This document shows positions 1,718-49,739 of a DNA stretch of 64,000 nucleotides, piece after piece. Location: the NCBI GenBank assembly GCA_964629685.1, contig CAZVTT010000001.1:319796-383795 (forward strand), in the 5' to 3' direction. The position numbers and the translations under genes are program-made. This DNA is from an uncultured Gammaproteobacteria bacterium. GTDB lineage: Bacteria > Patescibacteriota > Microgenomatia > UBA10105 > UBA927. The notes beneath the pieces were generated by a model. It searched no databases, was not told the origin of the DNA, and worked only from the letters and a program-made list of their open reading frames with translations. Each line of letters starts with the position of its first letter. Within the stretch, counting starts at the first letter, position 1.

Positions 1718-3286
1718 ATGAAAAAAGTCATTTCTTACTGGTACCTGGTCCCCTTTTTCTTAACCGTTCTCGGTATCCTTGATGCAGGTTATTTAACTTG
1801 GGAACATTTCAACAACGTTATTCCTCCCTGTTCAGTTCATATACTATTCGCCGACTGCGGACGCGTACTTACCAGTCCATATTCCATTCTCTTCGGAATC
1901 CCTTTGGCGCTTATCGGGTTAATTCACTATATGCTTGAGGCCGTAACGGCTGCAGTTGTAATTTTAACCGGGAATAAGTGGGCAAAGCGCATCTTAGTAC
2001 TGTTAGTTACCGGCGGATTACTGGCTTCCATGTATTTTGTATACATTATGTTGGGTATTATCGGAGCGATTTGCCTTTATTGTATGGGTTCCGCAATTAT
2101 AAGTTTCCTCCTCTTTGGATTTGTGCATTGGTTAATGCCAAATGAGCGGGTTTATTGGGTAGTATCCATCGGCGGACGGTTATACCGTAATGGAATTAAG
2201 CAAATATTTTTTCGATTCGAACCGGAGAAGATACATGTTTTTATGGTTGCTACAGGAGAGATTCTGGGAGCGAACCCACTGACACGGTGGCTTACTGGGT
2301 TTTTTCTCCATGTTAAGGATACAACTCTATCACAGACGACAAACGGTATATATTTTGAGAATCCTGTTGGGTTGGCAGCGGGATTTGATTATGAAGCTCA
2401 GCTGAGTCAAGTATTGGACCGTATATCCTTCGGGTTTCAAAGTGTGGGTACGATTACGCTAGGATCCTATGGCGGTAATCCCCGTCCCATGCTTGGACGT
2501 TTGCCTAAATCGAAATCGTTAATGGTAAATAAAGGTTTCAAAAATTTAGGGGTAAATGAGACGATCAAACGGTTGCAGAATAAATTATTCCGAATTCCGC
2601 TAGGAGTGAGTATCGGCCGTACCAACGGACGGGATATGTCACAAAAGGAAAGTATTCAGGATATCGTAAATTCATTTGAAGCGTTCGAATCAGCGTCAGT
2701 ATCACACGCGTATTATGAACTAAATATAAGTTGTCCTAACCTGTTGGGTTCCGTTTCATTTTATTCTCCGAAAGATCTGAACGAATTGCTGCAGGCAATT
2801 TCAAGATTAAAGATCATCAAGCCTGTATTCGTAAAGATGCCAATCGACAAAACGGATAAAGAAATATTGGCTATGATGCAGATCATAGCAAAATACGATT
2901 GGATAAAAGGACTTATTTTCGGAAATTTACAGAAAAACCGTAAAGATCCGGCTTTGGATTCCGGTGAAGTTGCGAAATTCCCGGTTGGTAATTTTAGCGG
3001 TAAGCCAACGTACCAACGGTCCAACGAGCTTATTACATTAGCCTACGAACACTATGCGGAACGATTTACTATTATTGGCTGTGGGGGAATTTTTACCGCT
3101 GAGGATGCTTACGAAAAAATCAAAAGAGGTGCATCGCTGGTGCAATTAATCACTGGTATGATTTTTAGGGGACCGCAGGTGATAGCAGATATAAATATCG
3201 GATTACGTGATTTATTGGATAAGGATGGGTACCATTCGTTATCTCAGGCTATTGGTGTATCTACAAAGAAGAAAATTAAAAACTAA
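1718..3286 (+). CDS. pyrD: fusion protein: N-terminal VKOR (vitamin K epoxide reductase-family) membrane domain plus dihydroorotate dehydrogenase (class-2-like, quinone-type) domain
   Basis: The N-terminal ~140 aa have 4 TM helices, a loop Cys pair C-x8-C-GRVLTS (human VKORC1 has C43-x7-C51-SRVFSS) and a TM CLYC motif (VKOR has CIVC). Residues ~150-522 are DHODH: quinone-tunnel helices FFRFEPEKIHVF, NPVGLAAGFD, KGFKNLGV, NISCPN and GCGGI…GASLVQLITG. Confidence 0.8.
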   Translation: MKKVISYWYLVPFFLTVLGILDAGYLTWEHFNNVIPPCSVHILFADCGRVLTSPYSILFGIPLALIGLIHYMLEAVTAAVVILTGNKWAKRILVLLVTGGLLASMYFVYIMLGIIGAICLYCMGSAIISFLLFGFVHWLMPNERVYWVVSIGGRLYRNGIKQIFFRFEPEKIHVFMVATGEILGANPLTRWLTGFFLHVKDTTLSQTTNGIYFENPVGLAAGFDYEAQLSQVLDRISFGFQSVGTITLGSYGGNPRPMLGRLPKSKSLMVNKGFKNLGVNETIKRLQNKLFRIPLGVSIGRTNGRDMSQKESIQDIVNSFEAFESASVSHAYYELNISCPNLLGSVSFYSPKDLNELLQAISRLKIIKPVFVKMPIDKTDKEILAMMQIIAKYDWIKGLIFGNLQKNRKDPALDSGEVAKFPVGNFSGKPTYQRSNELITLAYEHYAERFTIIGCGGIFTAEDAYEKIKRGASLVQLITGMIFRGPQVIADINIGLRDLLDKDGYHSLSQAIGVSTKKKIKN

Positions 3287-38771: not shown

Positions 38772-39824
38772 TTAGAAGGCTAATCCCAGCAGTAGAAGTA
38801 GTATTCCTCCGGCGATTACCGCTATCCCCAGTATGCTTGGACCAGTTCCTGCTACCGGTACTTCCGGTGTCGGCACGGCCGTTTCTCCCGGAGGCAGCGG
38901 TGTTGGGGTAGGTGTCGCTACGTCACAGCTACAATTAGTTTTGTTTGTGCAGGAGGGGTTGCGGCATTTTCCGCTGGAACAAATGAGTCCGTCTTCACAG
39001 TCACCATTATCTGAACATGAATTGTTACAGGATAACGGACAGGAACAGTCTGCTTCGTTTGTGCAGGAAGGATTTCTACATACTCCGCCTGAGCAAACCA
39101 ATCCTGATTTACAATCACTTGTGGCATTACATCCGTTATTACAACTTGCAGGTGTCGGTGTCTGAGTCGGTGTATTTGTTGCGACATCACAGGTACAATT
39201 GGATTTATTCGTACAGGAAGGATTGCGGCAGAGTCCGCCGGAGCAGATAAGCCCATCAGTACAATCTCCGTTGTCTGAACATGCATTGTTACATGCAACC
39301 GGACAGGTACAATCCGACTCGCTGGTGCAGGAAGGATTGCGGCACATTCCGCCTGAACACACTAAACCAGCCTTACAATCACTGTTGCTGGCACAGGCAC
39401 TGTCACAGCTCAATGGTGGTGTGGTTGGAGACGGTGTATTTGTCGGTGTGTTTGATGGTGTGTTTGTAGGGGTTACACACGTACAATCTTCACGATTCGT
39501 ACAGGAAGGGTTGCGGCATAGCCCACCGGAACAAACTAAACCTGCTGCACAATCGGCATTTCTTCCGCAGGATGCATTACAGGCACCTGGTGGGGAAGTG
39601 GGCGTTGGTGTTGGGGATACGTTTAAGGCAAACGTGATTTTGCATGCTTCAGGTTGCTGCACTCTGAATGTAAGTGTACAAGCAGGTGTAGCCGCCTTTG
39701 GTTCGTCCGGAGTAATTGGTTTTGTTTGTTGTAGTCTTAAGCTTGTAATTAGCGTTACGACACCCAGTCCAAGTGTTCCAATAGTAAGTAATGTTATATA
39801 CCAGTATTTTCGGATCATCTTCAT
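38772..39824 (-). CDS. cell-surface protein built from six cysteine-rich modules (C-N-x-(S/A)-C-x5-DC-x2-GL-x-CSGG-x-CRNPSCT-x5-C-(T/S)-C) separated by T/P-rich linkers; N- and C-terminal hydrophobic anchors
   Basis: The pattern is read directly from the translation. N-terminal signal/TM; C-terminal …PEVPVAGTG + hydrophobic helix. Confidence 0.6.
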   Translation of the reverse strand: MKMIRKYWYITLLTIGTLGLGVVTLITSLRLQQTKPITPDEPKAATPACTLTFRVQQPEACKITFALNVSPTPTPTSPPGACNASCGRNADCAAGLVCSGGLCRNPSCTNREDCTCVTPTNTPSNTPTNTPSPTTPPLSCDSACASNSDCKAGLVCSGGMCRNPSCTSESDCTCPVACNNACSDNGDCTDGLICSGGLCRNPSCTNKSNCTCDVATNTPTQTPTPASCNNGCNATSDCKSGLVCSGGVCRNPSCTNEADCSCPLSCNNSCSDNGDCEDGLICSSGKCRNPSCTNKTNCSCDVATPTPTPLPPGETAVPTPEVPVAGTGPSILGIAVIAGGILLLLLGLAF

Positions 39825-39826
39825 AG

Positions 39827-41065
39827 TTATCTCCAGACGCCTCCGATAAAGAGTTCGGCCTCAATGGTAAAGGTCGTCGTGCCACTTGAAGGAATTGTAA
39901 AGTTGAGAATGTATTCTCCGGCATCATTTTTAGCTGACGTTTCGGTGAATGTTCCGCCGTTGACTCTGATTCTGGCTTTGGTTGCGTTCGTTCCGACGAC
40001 TGCAATCACGATGCTGTCTCCCGGTTGCAGGTTGTTCGGATTGACGACTTCACCGTTTCTGTAAATCTTGATGTTCTGACATTGTCCCGTAATATCCGTT
40101 GGTGTCGGTGTATAGGTAACGGTAACTGTCGCTGTGGGCGTGTTCGTTGGCGTGATGGTACATTTGTCGTCGCTGCAGACTACACCATTCTGTAGACAGG
40201 CTGTCAGGACACATTTGTTGGCGCTGCAGGTGTGATTCTGTGGACATTGTGCATTACCGGTACAGGCATTTCCACATTGCGGGTTCGGTGTTGGCGTTGG
40301 TGTCGGTGTCTTGGTTGGAGTAGCCGTCGGTGTTTTGGTCGGTGTGTGTGTTGGTGTATTGGTGTTGCCTGTCGGTGTGGTTGGTGTTGGGGTATTTCCG
40401 CCACCGCCACCACAACTTGAGCTGATAACTTCAAAACTTCCACAACCTAAATTATCCCGTGAGCCTCCACGGCAGACTTCATCAACTTGTCCGCATCCTT
40501 GGGTGTATGCTTTTGCAGCTGCCCAGTTCGGGAAATCATAGGAAAGATTCTCGTGACATTCTCCGCCTGAAAGATTCCCACAACGGTAGGCGTTAATTTT
40601 GCCACAGGTACCTCCGGGACAAAGATCGCCGCCGACCTGATTACAGACGCGATTTCCACTTGTTCCGGTACAGACAAGATTCTGTCCACCGCAACATGGT
40701 TTGTTTTCATCACAAGCCTGTAACTTTGCCGCGCATTGACCATTAGTAGGGGTAGGCGTACTGTACGGACCACTAGCTGCTCGATTCCTAGTGTCTTGAA
40801 CTGATTGTGCACCGAAGTAAATTACCGGAAGTGAAAGCAGCATTAACAACATTACTGCCATCAATATCATCTTTTTCTTGTTATTCTTGCCGGCTGCAGG
40901 TGGAGGAGATGCTGGGGGAACACTGGAACCGGCACTTGCTCCCGGTGTCCATGATCCTGTCTGACCCATTAATGCATCTAAATTCGGTTCAGCTTCCGGT
41001 GTCGGTGGAGGAGTTGTTGCACTTGTTGTATCCGTCGGCTGATTAGCTAGTATGTCTGCTGTCAT
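39827..41065 (-). CDS. N-in membrane-anchored surface protein with two Cys-rich modules, (TP)n linkers and a C-terminal beta-rich domain; copy 1 of a tandem pair
   Basis: 412 aa. A Pro-rich cytoplasmic N-terminus with KNNKKK before a single TM. The extracellular part has CCGG, CPGGTC and CGGGGG motifs, a (TPT/KTP)n linker, and QCGNACTGNAQC…KCVLTAC…CSDDKC. Identical to the next gene except for the first ~8 codons. Confidence 0.6.
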   Translation of the reverse strand: MTADILANQPTDTTSATTPPPTPEAEPNLDALMGQTGSWTPGASAGSSVPPASPPPAAGKNNKKKMILMAVMLLMLLSLPVIYFGAQSVQDTRNRAASGPYSTPTPTNGQCAAKLQACDENKPCCGGQNLVCTGTSGNRVCNQVGGDLCPGGTCGKINAYRCGNLSGGECHENLSYDFPNWAAAKAYTQGCGQVDEVCRGGSRDNLGCGSFEVISSSCGGGGGNTPTPTTPTGNTNTPTHTPTKTPTATPTKTPTPTPTPNPQCGNACTGNAQCPQNHTCSANKCVLTACLQNGVVCSDDKCTITPTNTPTATVTVTYTPTPTDITGQCQNIKIYRNGEVVNPNNLQPGDSIVIAVVGTNATKARIRVNGGTFTETSAKNDAGEYILNFTIPSSGTTTFTIEAELFIGGVWR

Positions 41066-41067
41066 AG

Positions 41068-42303
41068 TTATCTCCAGACGCCTCCGATAAAGAGTTCGGC
41101 CTCAATGGTAAAGGTCGTCGTGCCACTTGAAGGAATTGTAAAGTTGAGAATGTATTCTCCGGCATCATTTTTAGCTGACGTTTCGGTGAATGTTCCGCCG
41201 TTGACTCTGATTCTGGCTTTGGTTGCGTTCGTTCCGACGACTGCAATCACGATGCTGTCTCCCGGTTGCAGGTTGTTCGGATTGACGACTTCACCGTTTC
41301 TGTAAATCTTGATGTTCTGACATTGTCCCGTAATATCCGTTGGTGTCGGTGTATAGGTAACGGTAACTGTCGCTGTGGGCGTGTTCGTTGGCGTGATGGT
41401 ACATTTGTCGTCGCTGCAGACTACACCATTCTGTAGACAGGCTGTCAGGACACATTTGTTGGCGCTGCAGGTGTGATTCTGTGGACATTGTGCATTACCG
41501 GTACAGGCATTTCCACATTGCGGGTTCGGTGTTGGCGTTGGTGTCGGTGTCTTGGTTGGAGTAGCCGTCGGTGTTTTGGTCGGTGTGTGTGTTGGTGTAT
41601 TGGTGTTGCCTGTCGGTGTGGTTGGTGTTGGGGTATTTCCGCCACCGCCACCACAACTTGAGCTGATAACTTCAAAACTTCCACAACCTAAATTATCCCG
41701 TGAGCCTCCACGGCAGACTTCATCAACTTGTCCGCATCCTTGGGTGTATGCTTTTGCAGCTGCCCAGTTCGGGAAATCATAGGAAAGATTCTCGTGACAT
41801 TCTCCGCCTGAAAGATTCCCACAACGGTAGGCGTTAATTTTGCCACAGGTACCTCCGGGACAAAGATCGCCGCCGACCTGATTACAGACGCGATTTCCAC
41901 TTGTTCCGGTACAGACAAGATTCTGTCCACCGCAACATGGTTTGTTTTCATCACAAGCCTGTAACTTTGCCGCGCATTGACCATTAGTAGGGGTAGGCGT
42001 ACTGTACGGACCACTAGCTGCTCGATTCCTAGTGTCTTGAACTGATTGTGCACCGAAGTAAATTACCGGAAGTGAAAGCAGCATTAACAACATTACTGCC
42101 ATCAATATCATCTTTTTCTTGTTATTCTTGCCGGCTGCAGGTGGAGGAGATGCTGGGGGAACACTGGAACCGGCACTTGCTCCCGGTGTCCATGATCCTG
42201 TCTGACCCATTAATGCATCTAAATTCGGTTCAGCTTCCGGTGTCGGTGGAGGAGTTGTTGCACTTGTTGTATCCGTCGGCTGATTTAAAGATTGATTGTC
42301 CAT
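41068..42303 (-). CDS. copy 2 of the tandem Cys-rich/TP-linker surface protein
   Basis: 411 aa, identical to copy 1 from residue ~8 onward. The N-terminus is MDNQSLNQ versus MTADILANQ in copy 1. Confidence 0.6.
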   Translation of the reverse strand: MDNQSLNQPTDTTSATTPPPTPEAEPNLDALMGQTGSWTPGASAGSSVPPASPPPAAGKNNKKKMILMAVMLLMLLSLPVIYFGAQSVQDTRNRAASGPYSTPTPTNGQCAAKLQACDENKPCCGGQNLVCTGTSGNRVCNQVGGDLCPGGTCGKINAYRCGNLSGGECHENLSYDFPNWAAAKAYTQGCGQVDEVCRGGSRDNLGCGSFEVISSSCGGGGGNTPTPTTPTGNTNTPTHTPTKTPTATPTKTPTPTPTPNPQCGNACTGNAQCPQNHTCSANKCVLTACLQNGVVCSDDKCTITPTNTPTATVTVTYTPTPTDITGQCQNIKIYRNGEVVNPNNLQPGDSIVIAVVGTNATKARIRVNGGTFTETSAKNDAGEYILNFTIPSSGTTTFTIEAELFIGGVWR

Positions 42304-42376
42304 GTAATAATTTCTAAAACCAAATTGGCCTATTTCTACATTAGATGATTAATAAATTCCTCGTCAAGTATATCTT

Positions 42377-43714
42377 TTAAAATAAGACTAAAACTCCCGA
42401 TGCAAGTAATACGATTCCGAAAACTAACAGTAGCAATGTCGGTAATGAGGTAGCTGTAGTTGGAATAGGTTGAGGCGTCGCTGATGCGACTGGAGTAGAT
42501 GTCGGTGTAAGAGTGGCTGTGGCAGTAGCGGTGGGCGTAAGGGTAGCAGACGGCGTAGCTTCGCCTAATACTTGTGTACCGCTTTTAAAAATTGTGAATC
42601 CATGAGTGATGGCTACTGGTTTACCTTGAGCATCTACTGTGGTTACGGTGACACTCTGTTTGCCGGATCCCAGTTCTTTCGTCGGAGTATATCTCCATAC
42701 GCCATCGGTTCCTACTTTCGTTGTTCCGCTAAAAGGATTAGTGATACCAAGCGTTATGGTGACTACTTTTGACGGAATGCCTGTACCCTGAATAAGTGGA
42801 AGTCGGCTGGTAAGGGTAGCTCCTTCGGCAGGAGCGTTTAATGATATTTTTTCTGTAGCGAACGTTGATTGAGTCGTTCCGAGTACCGCGGTTTCTTCTT
42901 TTGGAGTAGCGCTAGGTATAGGCGTTACTGTCGGGCTTAGTTGTAAAGCCAGCTGGGCAGTTGCATTGACTTTCGCTTGTTGTTTTCGGAAATCGTATGT
43001 TTTACCGATAATCATTGTCGGTACTGGAGAATCATTAAAGGTGTCGCTCACAGCCGTGGCCTCTTCTTCAGCATATTTTACAACCAATGTTTCGGTTAAG
43101 CGATCCTGTGTGGTTATATACGTATTCAAATCTGTGGTTCGAATTAAGTTGAGTGGGATTATCCATGAACCTGTAGGTTTTACCAGTGCGGAAAGTGTCT
43201 GGCTTCCTTCTAAAGTTAGAAAGATTAGTGCTCCGTCGGCAGGTTGATTGTCAGTTGTAAGTACGGTACCGTAGGCAGGTTCAAGTGATCCTGCGTTCGA
43301 ATCCAGTGTCGGGGCTGTACTTACATGATATGGTTTACCCCCTGCATCATAATATTCTTGCCCGTTTGCAAGTATTTTTAATGTATAGTCGGTTTCCGCT
43401 TTGAGATTTCTTAAAGTAACGCTGTGACTTTGATATTTCCCTAGTTTTCCGTTTCCGTCGCGTTCATCTATAAACGTCTGCGGTCGCTGCTGAGGACCCG
43501 TTAATACCACTGCTCCGGAGGTAGAGCCGCCAGTCAGCCACGTTATTGTTACCGTTGTGTCTGTGATATTTGTAAATTGAATATTAGCAGGTCGTTCGGA
43601 GGGGGATGCTTTTGTAGGACTTCGGAATGCCTGATCAAGTACAACAACAACTCCTACAATCGTAAGGAGCAGTAGTAATCCAATAACAGTAGGAATTTTT
43701 CGCGGAAATTGCAT
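42377..43714 (-). CDS. membrane-anchored surface protein with a fibronectin type III-like domain
   Basis: N-terminal TM; FN3-like PANIQFTNITDTTVTITW…; a long Thr/Ser-rich beta region; C-terminal (T/A/P)-rich linker + hydrophobic helix. Confidence 0.55.
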   Translation of the reverse strand: MQFPRKIPTVIGLLLLLTIVGVVVVLDQAFRSPTKASPSERPANIQFTNITDTTVTITWLTGGSTSGAVVLTGPQQRPQTFIDERDGNGKLGKYQSHSVTLRNLKAETDYTLKILANGQEYYDAGGKPYHVSTAPTLDSNAGSLEPAYGTVLTTDNQPADGALIFLTLEGSQTLSALVKPTGSWIIPLNLIRTTDLNTYITTQDRLTETLVVKYAEEEATAVSDTFNDSPVPTMIIGKTYDFRKQQAKVNATAQLALQLSPTVTPIPSATPKEETAVLGTTQSTFATEKISLNAPAEGATLTSRLPLIQGTGIPSKVVTITLGITNPFSGTTKVGTDGVWRYTPTKELGSGKQSVTVTTVDAQGKPVAITHGFTIFKSGTQVLGEATPSATLTPTATATATLTPTSTPVASATPQPIPTTATSLPTLLLLVFGIVLLASGVLVLF

Positions 43715-43719
43715 GAATT

Positions 43720-43914
43720 CTAATATACCTGTTTCTTTTGTAACACACTTAGTATGCCAGTGTCTAAAGTAGGGTTCAATGGGGTAATTACCTGCTTAAC
43801 TGTACTGGAAACAGTCGTAGTTTTAGCGGTCTTAACCAGTTCGAAAAATATCCAAGATAATACGGTTAAAAATGTAAATACCGAAACGAGCAATATGTCA
43901 CGGTCATTATCCAT
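43720..43914 (-). CDS. small single-TM protein (possible minor pilus-assembly component)
   Basis: 64 aa with one TM, packed between the pilO-like and FN3 genes. Confidence 0.3.
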   Translation of the reverse strand: MDNDRDILLVSVFTFLTVLSWIFFELVKTAKTTTVSSTVKQVITPLNPTLDTGILSVLQKKQVY

Positions 43915-43926
43915 GTCACTCCTATT

Positions 43927-44628
43927 CTATTGTGTTTTTCCTTTTAGTGAATAGTACCCTTGAAGTCGGATTACAAGTCTTAGTGATTTTGGTGCTAATG
44001 GGTCATCAGATACCTCTTCGTCTTTGAGTGAACTGATTATCGAAGAATTAACGGTAACAATTCGTCTCATGTTAATAACCCCTTCAAGAAATGCTTTGAT
44101 GTTTGAGTATGGCCCGTTGACCGAAACAACCATAGGAACTATTTTTTCTTTCGGCTGGTTTTGGGTTTTTTGACTGCTGGGCGTAGCTTCCTGTCCCAAT
44201 AACGGGATACTGGGAATTGAAATTGAGCTCACTGTAACTTGTGTCTGTTCTGCTAAATTTTTTAATTGGAATACCAGTGTTAATGCATCCGGTGTTTCCG
44301 GTACTGCCTGATCAATAAGCGGTAACTGATCTTCAATAGCCTGATAGTTTGCTTGAGCCTCAATCAGGTTTGTTATTTTTTCTTCCATTATTTTATTTAC
44401 GACCGTATTATCGGCAATTTCCCGTCTGAGGAATAAAATTGTTTGTAGTGTCGGGCGTATTCCGTACCAACCAAAAAGTGAAATTGCAAGAAATGAGAAA
44501 ATTGTGGTGGTATACGCACGATTTTTAGGTTTGCTTATCAATGGTTCAATAGTCTGATAGTACCGTTTATATTGTTGATAATTTGGTTTTTGATTGACTG
44601 CCATATTATTTTTTCTTTGGTGTCGCAA
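43927..44628 (-). CDS. pilO: type IV pilus assembly protein PilO-like
   Basis: N-terminal TM, coiled-coil and C-terminal alpha/beta region. Overlaps the upstream pilN-like gene by 23 nt. Confidence 0.5.
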   Translation of the reverse strand: MRHQRKNNMAVNQKPNYQQYKRYYQTIEPLISKPKNRAYTTTIFSFLAISLFGWYGIRPTLQTILFLRREIADNTVVNKIMEEKITNLIEAQANYQAIEDQLPLIDQAVPETPDALTLVFQLKNLAEQTQVTVSSISIPSIPLLGQEATPSSQKTQNQPKEKIVPMVVSVNGPYSNIKAFLEGVINMRRIVTVNSSIISSLKDEEVSDDPLAPKSLRLVIRLQGYYSLKGKTQ

Positions 44629-45157
44629 TAAATGCGGTAATTTTAAATTGTATCCCCACTAAAGGTTGTTTTTTTATATCTCCAACTTCGATTTGAGTAA
44701 TTTGTTTTGTACTTTGAAGGTTTGCAATAAATTGTGAGAAACCTGTGGTGCTCCCAGCCGTTGCGCTTATAAGAATTCTCTCGGGACCATAGTCAAGTGA
44801 TTCTAAGTAAACATCGGGTGGCAGTAGCGTCTGGAAAAGAGAAACCATTTCGACTGGTTTCGATTGGTTGTTTAATAATGTGTTTACATTTACAAGTCGT
44901 TCCTGAAGTTGTTTAAATGAAGCCTCAAAGTCTTGATTAGCTTTTAGGATTGCCTGCTTTTGGCCAATTTCCTCTTTAAGGTCGGTTAATTTACGGTCGA
45001 GACTAAATCGGGAGATAAAGGCGAGTAATACAATTATCTCAGTGCCGATCATGATATATCGGCCATACGTTACCGCCCACGTAGTAATTCTGCCAATGGG
45101 CGAGTTCTCCAGATCATCACGTTGTAATAAATTAATTGTCGGAGTCTTGGCAGGCAT
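44606..45157 (-). CDS. pilN: type IV pilus assembly protein PilN-like
   Basis: Conserved N-terminal INLL motif (…TPTINLLQRDD…) followed by a TM helix, a coiled-coil and a C-terminal ferredoxin-like domain. Confidence 0.6.
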   Translation of the reverse strand: MPAKTPTINLLQRDDLENSPIGRITTWAVTYGRYIMIGTEIIVLLAFISRFSLDRKLTDLKEEIGQKQAILKANQDFEASFKQLQERLVNVNTLLNNQSKPVEMVSLFQTLLPPDVYLESLDYGPERILISATAGSTTGFSQFIANLQSTKQITQIEVGDIKKQPLVGIQFKITAFIATPKKK

Positions 45158-45199: not shown

Positions 45200-45436
45200 T
45201 TATTTCTTAAGCAGTTTAGCTAACCTCGATTTTAGACGATCAGCTTTGTTCTGGTGGATTACATTGCGTTTTGCAGCCTTATCGAGAGTCTTGAACGCTG
45301 AAGTCAGTGTTTTTTCTGATGGCTTTTTACGCATTGATTTAACAATTTCACGTACTGACTCTTTCGTAACACGATTTGTCTCCGTGCGTTTTCGGTCGTG
45401 GCGAAGTTTTTTTATGGCACTAGCAATAATTGGCAT
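45200..45436 (-). CDS. rpsT: 30S ribosomal protein S20
   Basis: 78 aa, highly basic, S20 signature (…AIKKLRHDRKR…NRVTKES…). Confidence 0.9.
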   Translation of the reverse strand: MPIIASAIKKLRHDRKRTETNRVTKESVREIVKSMRKKPSEKTLTSAFKTLDKAAKRNVIHQNKADRLKSRLAKLLKK

Positions 45437-48710: not shown

Positions 48711-49739
48711 TCAGTGCAGTACGATCGGGATACTTATTCCGGCAATCAACAGTATACTGGCAAGTGCAATCAAGAGATAGGTATTGTCCATAATGCCGGT
48801 AACAGGTACAGCACTGGAGGTTGATGTGGATGTGCTGCTTTGAATAATAAATGTGGTACTTGTTGTTTGGCTGGCTCCTGTCGTTGTATCTGTTGCCGTT
48901 ACTACTAACTGATGTGATCCGGTTGTTAGGGCAGTCTGCGGTGTGAAACTCCAGTTTCCGCTGCTGTCTGTCGTAGTCGTTCCCGTTTGCGGAGCAGAGT
49001 AAATTGTTACGGTAATTGTGGCACTCGGTGTGGCTTTTCCCTGAAACGTAGGACGGGTAGTAGTTAAGATACTATCTTTGGTAGGATAGGTTATAAGTAA
49101 TGCCGAACCGGAAGCCGTACCTGTTGGCGTGGGGGTTGGCGTAAGCGTAATTGTTCCGGAAGGATTGGGAGTAGTGGTGGGGGTAGGTGTTCCGGTTCCA
49201 CCTGCTCCTGTGCCTTCGGTGATAGTAACGGTAGCGCCATTTTGACCGCTTAGGGCGTTCGTTGTACCTTCACCAGGACTTCCTACAAACGTGTTCGATG
49301 CGAATCTAATTGAAATCGGTGTATCGGTTTTCTGTAATGCTTTGAACTTAACGGTGGCTACAGTACCTGTTCCTTTAACCGGTTGGGCAGCGCTTGCAGC
49401 ACCTACCGTGATGGATGCGACGCCTTTATCAACAACTCCGGATGCCAGGATGTTGGGGAAAAGCGTCCCATTGGTAATTGTTTCCGCTTCCAGTTTTGTT
49501 TGATCAAACGTGAGATGGATTTCTGCCGCTATGACTTGGTTGTCGCCAGTATCAATTGTGACATCAAATGAAAATTCATCGCCTATTTTTTTAGTGATTT
49601 TTGAAGGAGTAATGGAGAGCACTGTTGCCGGTGCAGCACGTTTCCGCAGTTCGGTATTTCGTTGAACCAGCAATACCGTAGCAGGTATAGCTATTACGAC
49701 TAAAAGAATACTTATGAGCAGGAATAATTTCTTCATCAC
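48711..49739 (-). CDS. surface protein with cohesin-like domain, T/P-rich linker and C-terminal VPVTG + hydrophobic anchor
   Basis: N-terminal TM; cohesin-like beta-sandwich (…FSFDVTIDTGDNQVIAAEIHLTFDQTKLEAETI…GTVATVKFKALQ…); (TPTP)n linker; C-terminal SSAVPVTG-hydrophobic helix. Confidence 0.5.
   Translation of the reverse strand: MMKKLFLLISILLVVIAIPATVLLVQRNTELRKRAAPATVLSITPSKITKKIGDEFSFDVTIDTGDNQVIAAEIHLTFDQTKLEAETITNGTLFPNILASGVVDKGVASITVGAASAAQPVKGTGTVATVKFKALQKTDTPISIRFASNTFVGSPGEGTTNALSGQNGATVTITEGTGAGGTGTPTPTTTPNPSGTITLTPTPTPTGTASGSALLITYPTKDSILTTTRPTFQGKATPSATITVTIYSAPQTGTTTTDSSGNWSFTPQTALTTGSHQLVVTATDTTTGASQTTSTTFIIQSSTSTSTSSAVPVTGIMDNTYLLIALASILLIAGISIPIVLH

Follow-up and report, generated by a model that had tools for sequence, protein, structure and literature searches.

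Why are homologs of two type IV pilus platform proteins encoded directly ahead of exported, partly cysteine-rich proteins in an ultra-small bacterium of the CPR, and which of these proteins is their constant partner? We addressed this question in a 64,000-nt window, that is, the whole stretch of DNA analysed (CAZVTT010000001.1, positions 319,796-383,795, assembly GCA_964629685.1), from a Gottesmanbacteria-like organism, and by comparison of the loci L001-L010 and L013-L064. The conserved partner of pilN and pilO is a Cys-free FN3/Big_13 protein, rather than the eight-cysteine repeat that an earlier note on this DNA had placed beside the pilus genes.

The pilN-pilO string and its conservation

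All genes of the array lie on the minus strand, as the earlier note had described, and every ORF was found where it had placed it. The string probably begins with rpsT (ribosomal protein S20, 45200-45436), whose ortholog matches Pfam Ribosomal_S20p in each of the related loci. It shares the strand of pilN, 42 nt ahead of that gene, and the strongest sigma-70-like match (10/12, a promoter-like site at 45472-45444) is upstream of rpsT. The pilN product (44606-45157) reaches 31.7 bits with Pfam PilN (E=1.6e-7, GA 22.8), has the bitopic topology of this platform protein, with one TM segment at residues 35-53, and retains the N-terminal I/V-N-L-L motif, N9 and L10 being invariant in nine orthologs; its profile matches the Myxococcus xanthus PilN (3JC8) with E=0.006. 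The pilO product (43927-44604) scores 34.6 bits with Pfam PilO (E=2.5e-8, GA 22), and its profile matches PilO in 3JC8 (E=6e-10) and 2RJZ (E=3e-6). The two proteins are homologous to the platform pair of type IV pili. The longest pilO ORF begins at a TTG at 44628, and the overlap 44606/44628 reported earlier did not hold up, since orthologs and the L065 gene calls favour the ATG at 44604, which is most likely the start, gives a protein of 225 residues and leaves a 1-nt spacer.

Downstream of pilO is a gene for a 64-residue single-pass membrane protein, here called small (43720-43914), with a highly conserved TM segment (DRDILLVSVFTFLTVLSWIFFELVKTAKTTTV), for which no Pfam or NCBIfam family was found. 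It is followed by the gene of the Cys-free FN3/Big_13 protein (445 residues, 42377-43714), which matches Pfam fn3 (29.3 bits, GA 25), Big_13 (27.5 bits, GA 27) and Pur_ac_phosph_N, and whose FN3 profile matches the FN3 domain of tenascin (E=1e-4). Spacers in this part of the string are 1-12 nt, so the close packing claimed previously (3-12 nt or overlaps) stands here, while the gap between the FN3 gene and the next gene, at 73 nt, departs from it. No pilM, pilB, pilC, pilT, pilD, pilin or sortase gene is present within the 64-kb window, and the connection to pili therefore comes solely from the PilN/PilO homology.

The cassette is conserved in more than 50 species, and its order recurs in about 55 Microgenomatia genomes, among them some with other flanks, so that the proposed linkage of pilN-pilO to downstream exported proteins is no local accident. 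Among 46 species-level loci of Microgenomatia, 45 show the order pilN, pilO, small, FN3/Big_13, always with the small gene between pilO and the FN3 gene. It is retained where other genes follow (L010, L009), and the four genes are still contiguous in distant members with differing flanks (L009, L010, L056-L061). The two further genes, called mid and last, are present in 32/39 and 33/39 loci, respectively, and three or four species keep the core without either of them, which indicates that both are dispensable. Part of the conservation reflects simple relatedness, because the whole neighbourhood (murJ, rpsT, tpiA, uvrD and femAB) is syntenic in the Gottesmanbacteria. The invariant core is (rpsT)-pilN-pilO-small-FN3/Big_13, with the Cys-rich mid and last as frequent, variable accessories.

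Surface proteins, sorting-type signals and the eight-cysteine module

The FN3 protein is a stalk protein that consists of an N-terminal anchor, the FN3 domain, a middle beta domain, Big_13, a Thr/Pro linker and a C-terminal IPTTA followed by a TM segment. Its orthologs end in VPTSG, IPETG, MPTSG or similar, again ahead of a TM segment, and last carries the same kind of sortase-like signal, [VIM]P-x-[TSA]-[GA] plus TM. Matching pentapeptides occur within one genome, with QPVTG in both the FN3 protein and last of L010, and IPEAG/LPDAG in L009. The NCBIfam sorting-signal models do not match the C-termini of the window proteins, one homolog with LPKTG passes TIGR01167, and a basic tail, as in classical LPXTG signals, is found in 0/34 last proteins. 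A sortase is reported to be nearly ubiquitous in Microgenomates (PMC6744442). Hydropathy, which gives the FN3 protein and last a second, C-terminal hydrophobic segment, and the positive-inside rule fit the predicted N-in, single-pass or doubly anchored topology proposed before, and the prediction for the downstream proteins is a tethered, extracytoplasmic location. A signal of the same type is found in a Cohesin+Big_13 protein (48711-49739, minus strand; Pfam Cohesin and Big_13; C-terminal VPVTG plus TM), whose gene has a conserved position about 3.5 kb upstream of pilN, past murJ and GH39, and whose orthologs end in IPVSG, VPVSG or similar.

Two of the three Cys-rich proteins counted in the earlier note turned out to be one gene in tandem duplicate, mid copy A (41068-42303, 411 residues) and copy B (39827-41065, 412 residues). 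The segments 39821-41044 and 41062-42285 are identical over 1224 nt, and the copies diverge solely in their first 7-8 codons. Two independent SRA assemblies also yielded the junction between the copies, in the form of 1271-nt self-overlapping contigs. Mid is predicted to have a Pro-rich cytoplasmic N-terminus, an N-in TM segment, a Cys-rich ectodomain with Thr/Pro linkers, in which the CCGG, CPGGTC and QCGNACTGNAQC strings noted previously are indeed found, and a C-terminal Ig-like beta-sandwich, but no sorting signal. In copy A this sandwich spans residues 327-411 (nt 41071-41325) and begins at the invariant Cys328; it is predicted to be complete, with some 6-7 strands, and its fold matches are statistically not significant.

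The 350-residue last protein (38772-39824) contains five 35-residue, eight-cysteine modules, located by regular expression at nt 39477-39581, 39303-39407, 39189-39293, 39039-39143 and 38925-39029, rather than a sixfold repeat. One of them stands singly and the other four form a pair that was duplicated (a 264-nt direct repeat, 70% identity); Thr/Pro linkers set the modules apart. Their spacing, C-x3-C-x5-C-x5-C-x4-C-x4-C-x5-C-x-C, is identical in 142/164 modules. A common N- and C-terminal frame is found in 128 homologs. The constant elements of last are the anchor at its N-terminus, the C-x-[LIV]-x-F motif, present once or twice, and the [VI]P-x-[TSA]-[GA] plus TM at its C-terminus. In the window protein, the A-C-x-[LI]-x-F motif occurs twice (at C49 and C61, nt 39627-39683), and the C-terminus has VPVAG-TGPSILG plus TM (nt 38775-38867), assigned by its sequence and by the sorting pentapeptides of orthologs. 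The module is an optional part of last, its number ranging from 0 to 5. Searching for its co-occurrence with pilN/O in other genomes, a check suggested in the earlier note, showed that most last orthologs lack it (23/36).

Nor is the module as unlike described domains as had been thought. Its profile matches the Dumpy DPY module (PDB 1OIG) with E=3.2e-4, and homologs score above the Pfam Dumpy_DPY threshold; the window modules reach at most 18 bits, below the GA of 27, and the window protein stays below threshold with every Pfam and NCBIfam model. The AF2 model (pLDDT 89) can be superposed on knottins and DPY at about 1 Å rmsd, in fold matches that are statistically not significant. By profile and model, the core is DPY-like and the module a predicted knottin-like mini-domain, so that the fold appears not to be wholly new.

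A possible wall-spanning complex and competing explanations

The number of cysteines is odd in 37/40 mid and 34/36 last proteins, which suggests an intermolecular disulfide between the two; C328 of mid is invariant. In the window, L001, L051, L054 and L070, of which L070 served as a prospective test, a two-motif last is accompanied by two mid genes, and none of the approximately 38 loci with a single-motif last has two mids; L071 is an exception to the rule that two motifs mean two mids, and the loci that fit are phylogenetically non-independent. The VKOR fusion at 1718 was confirmed as a VKOR-DHODH gene outside the array (1718-3286, plus strand; Pfam VKOR E=1.9e-25, DHO_dh E=4.9e-49). Its presence in the window makes oxidative folding plausible, and it is a possible re-oxidant for extracytoplasmic disulfide formation. 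CPR bacteria are enriched in VKOR and MdbA-like oxidoreductases (PMC6744442).

Our preferred reading, held tentatively and at somewhat less than even confidence, is a lineage-specific envelope cassette of the Microgenomatia that encodes a surface complex linked to a pilus platform. The four downstream products would be exported by Sec, and the housekeeping sortase of the lineage would cut the FN3 protein and last at the pentapeptide and link them to the wall, whereas mid would remain in the membrane. Each eight-cysteine bead would acquire four disulfides through a VKOR-dependent pathway, and beads alternating with Thr/Pro linkers would form a stalk that is stiff, resists proteases and can be adjusted in length. 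The single unpaired cysteine in the first strand of the mid beta-sandwich could bond to its unpaired counterpart in last, in a C-x-[LIV]-x-F strand motif, joining a membrane-anchored to a wall-anchored protein. The complex, located at the PilN/PilO platform, may function as a tether across the wall or as a display scaffold whose fast-evolving outer parts serve in attachment; it is in this sense that we infer an adhesin or pilus-associated role for the surface proteins.

The genes could instead be mere neighbours, with pilN-pilO serving the pilus machine and FN3, mid and last being ordinary wall or surface proteins that share a string without joint work. The shared string with rpsT and its upstream promoter-like site, the synteny across Gottesmanbacteria, the species without mid and last, the 73-nt gap ahead of mid and the nearby cohesin/Big_13 protein with its sortase signal outside the string would all agree with this. 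We consider it rather unlikely, given the contiguity of the core in 45/46 loci, even with different flanks, the 1-12 nt spacers, and the fact that pilN-pilO never adjoin other pilus genes in cassette loci. The absence of other pilus genes within 64 kb would suit a PilN/PilO-like pair working outside any pilus, as a recruited membrane platform that assembles or anchors the sortase-type proteins. The pair stays joined to the small and FN3 genes, last has an N-terminal TM of unusually high conservation, as expected of a specific membrane partner, and a published Microgenomates pilus locus lists PilM, not PilN or PilO (PMC7143001). However, the PilM-binding type of I/V-N-L-L motif is conserved, among solved structures the best matches are PilO and PilN of type IVa systems, and CPR genomes generally have complete type IV pilus sets including both families (PMC6744442), which leaves this proposal distinctly improbable.

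Very little weight falls on a sortase-polymerised or donor-strand (Pam-like) pilus, with FN3, mid and last as pilins or tip/base subunits. Donor-strand Pam pili, whose FnIII-type anchors bear C-terminal TM helices, are now known from CPR (bioRxiv 10.64898/2026.03.03.709456), and two proteins here have LPXTG-like signals, Ig-like domains are present and last has a beta-strand-like N-terminal motif. Yet the cassette has no sortase or chaperone-like gene and does not adjoin the ATP synthase genes as the pam operon does, no YPKN-type pilin motif was seen, solved pilins give no sequence match, and mid has no sorting signal and a C-terminal sandwich predicted to be complete. That the modules form no disulfides and instead bind metals, Zn or Fe for example, is scarcely credible: eight invariant cysteines in 35 residues, and source metagenomes that are often from groundwater, where many CPR live in anoxic conditions, are compatible with it, but the core can be aligned with knottins and with the DPY module, which is disulfide-bonded, the cysteine number per module is even, a His or Asp ligand pattern is absent, and VKOR is in the window, with MdbA/VKOR enriched in CPR (PMC6744442).

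Comparison with known systems

The envelope cassette shares with the T4aP PilN-PilO pair (M. xanthus 3JC8, Pseudomonas aeruginosa 2RJZ) the Pfam matches above threshold, bitopic topology, N-terminal motif and adjacent pilN-pilO order, but its pair lacks an upstream pilM and pilP/pilQ, stands apart from all other pilus genes and is followed by the small TM protein and the FN3/Big_13 protein with its sortase-like signal. Gram-positive LPXTG substrates (TIGR01167, the model passed by the LPKTG homolog) likewise have a C-terminal pentapeptide followed by a hydrophobic segment, Ig/FN3-type stalk domains and Thr/Pro-rich wall-spanning linkers. In contrast, the cassette signal has the pentapeptide [VIM]P-x-[TSA]-[GA]; last lacks a basic tail and has G-x-G-P-S-x-L-G as a further conserved stretch; the hydrophobic segment at the N-terminus shows the conservation of a genuine anchor; and a sortase gene is absent nearby.

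With Dumpy DPY (PF21164, 1OIG) the module has in common the core C-x5-C-x5-C-x4-C with SDC..G..C..G.CRNP, and its predicted hairpin superposes on 1OIG and the squash inhibitors (knottin). It is, however, bacterial, has eight cysteines rather than four through one N-terminal Cys and a C-terminal SCT-x5-C-x-C extension, and has Thr/Pro linkers in place of EGF modules between its copies. CPR Pam pili are also a CPR-specific surface system with Ig-like domains, subunit disulfides and a proposed membrane anchor, an FnIII protein that has its TM at the C-terminus, but their operon includes PapD-like chaperones and lacks PilN/PilO. The exported, very Cys-rich proteins of Peribacteria, which likewise belong to the CPR and for which a role in attachment was also proposed (PMC4736985), are large (about 1,650 residues) and weakly similar to Myxococcus Cys-rich repeats, whereas the cassette proteins are short and have a fixed N- and C-terminal frame and a defined operon context.

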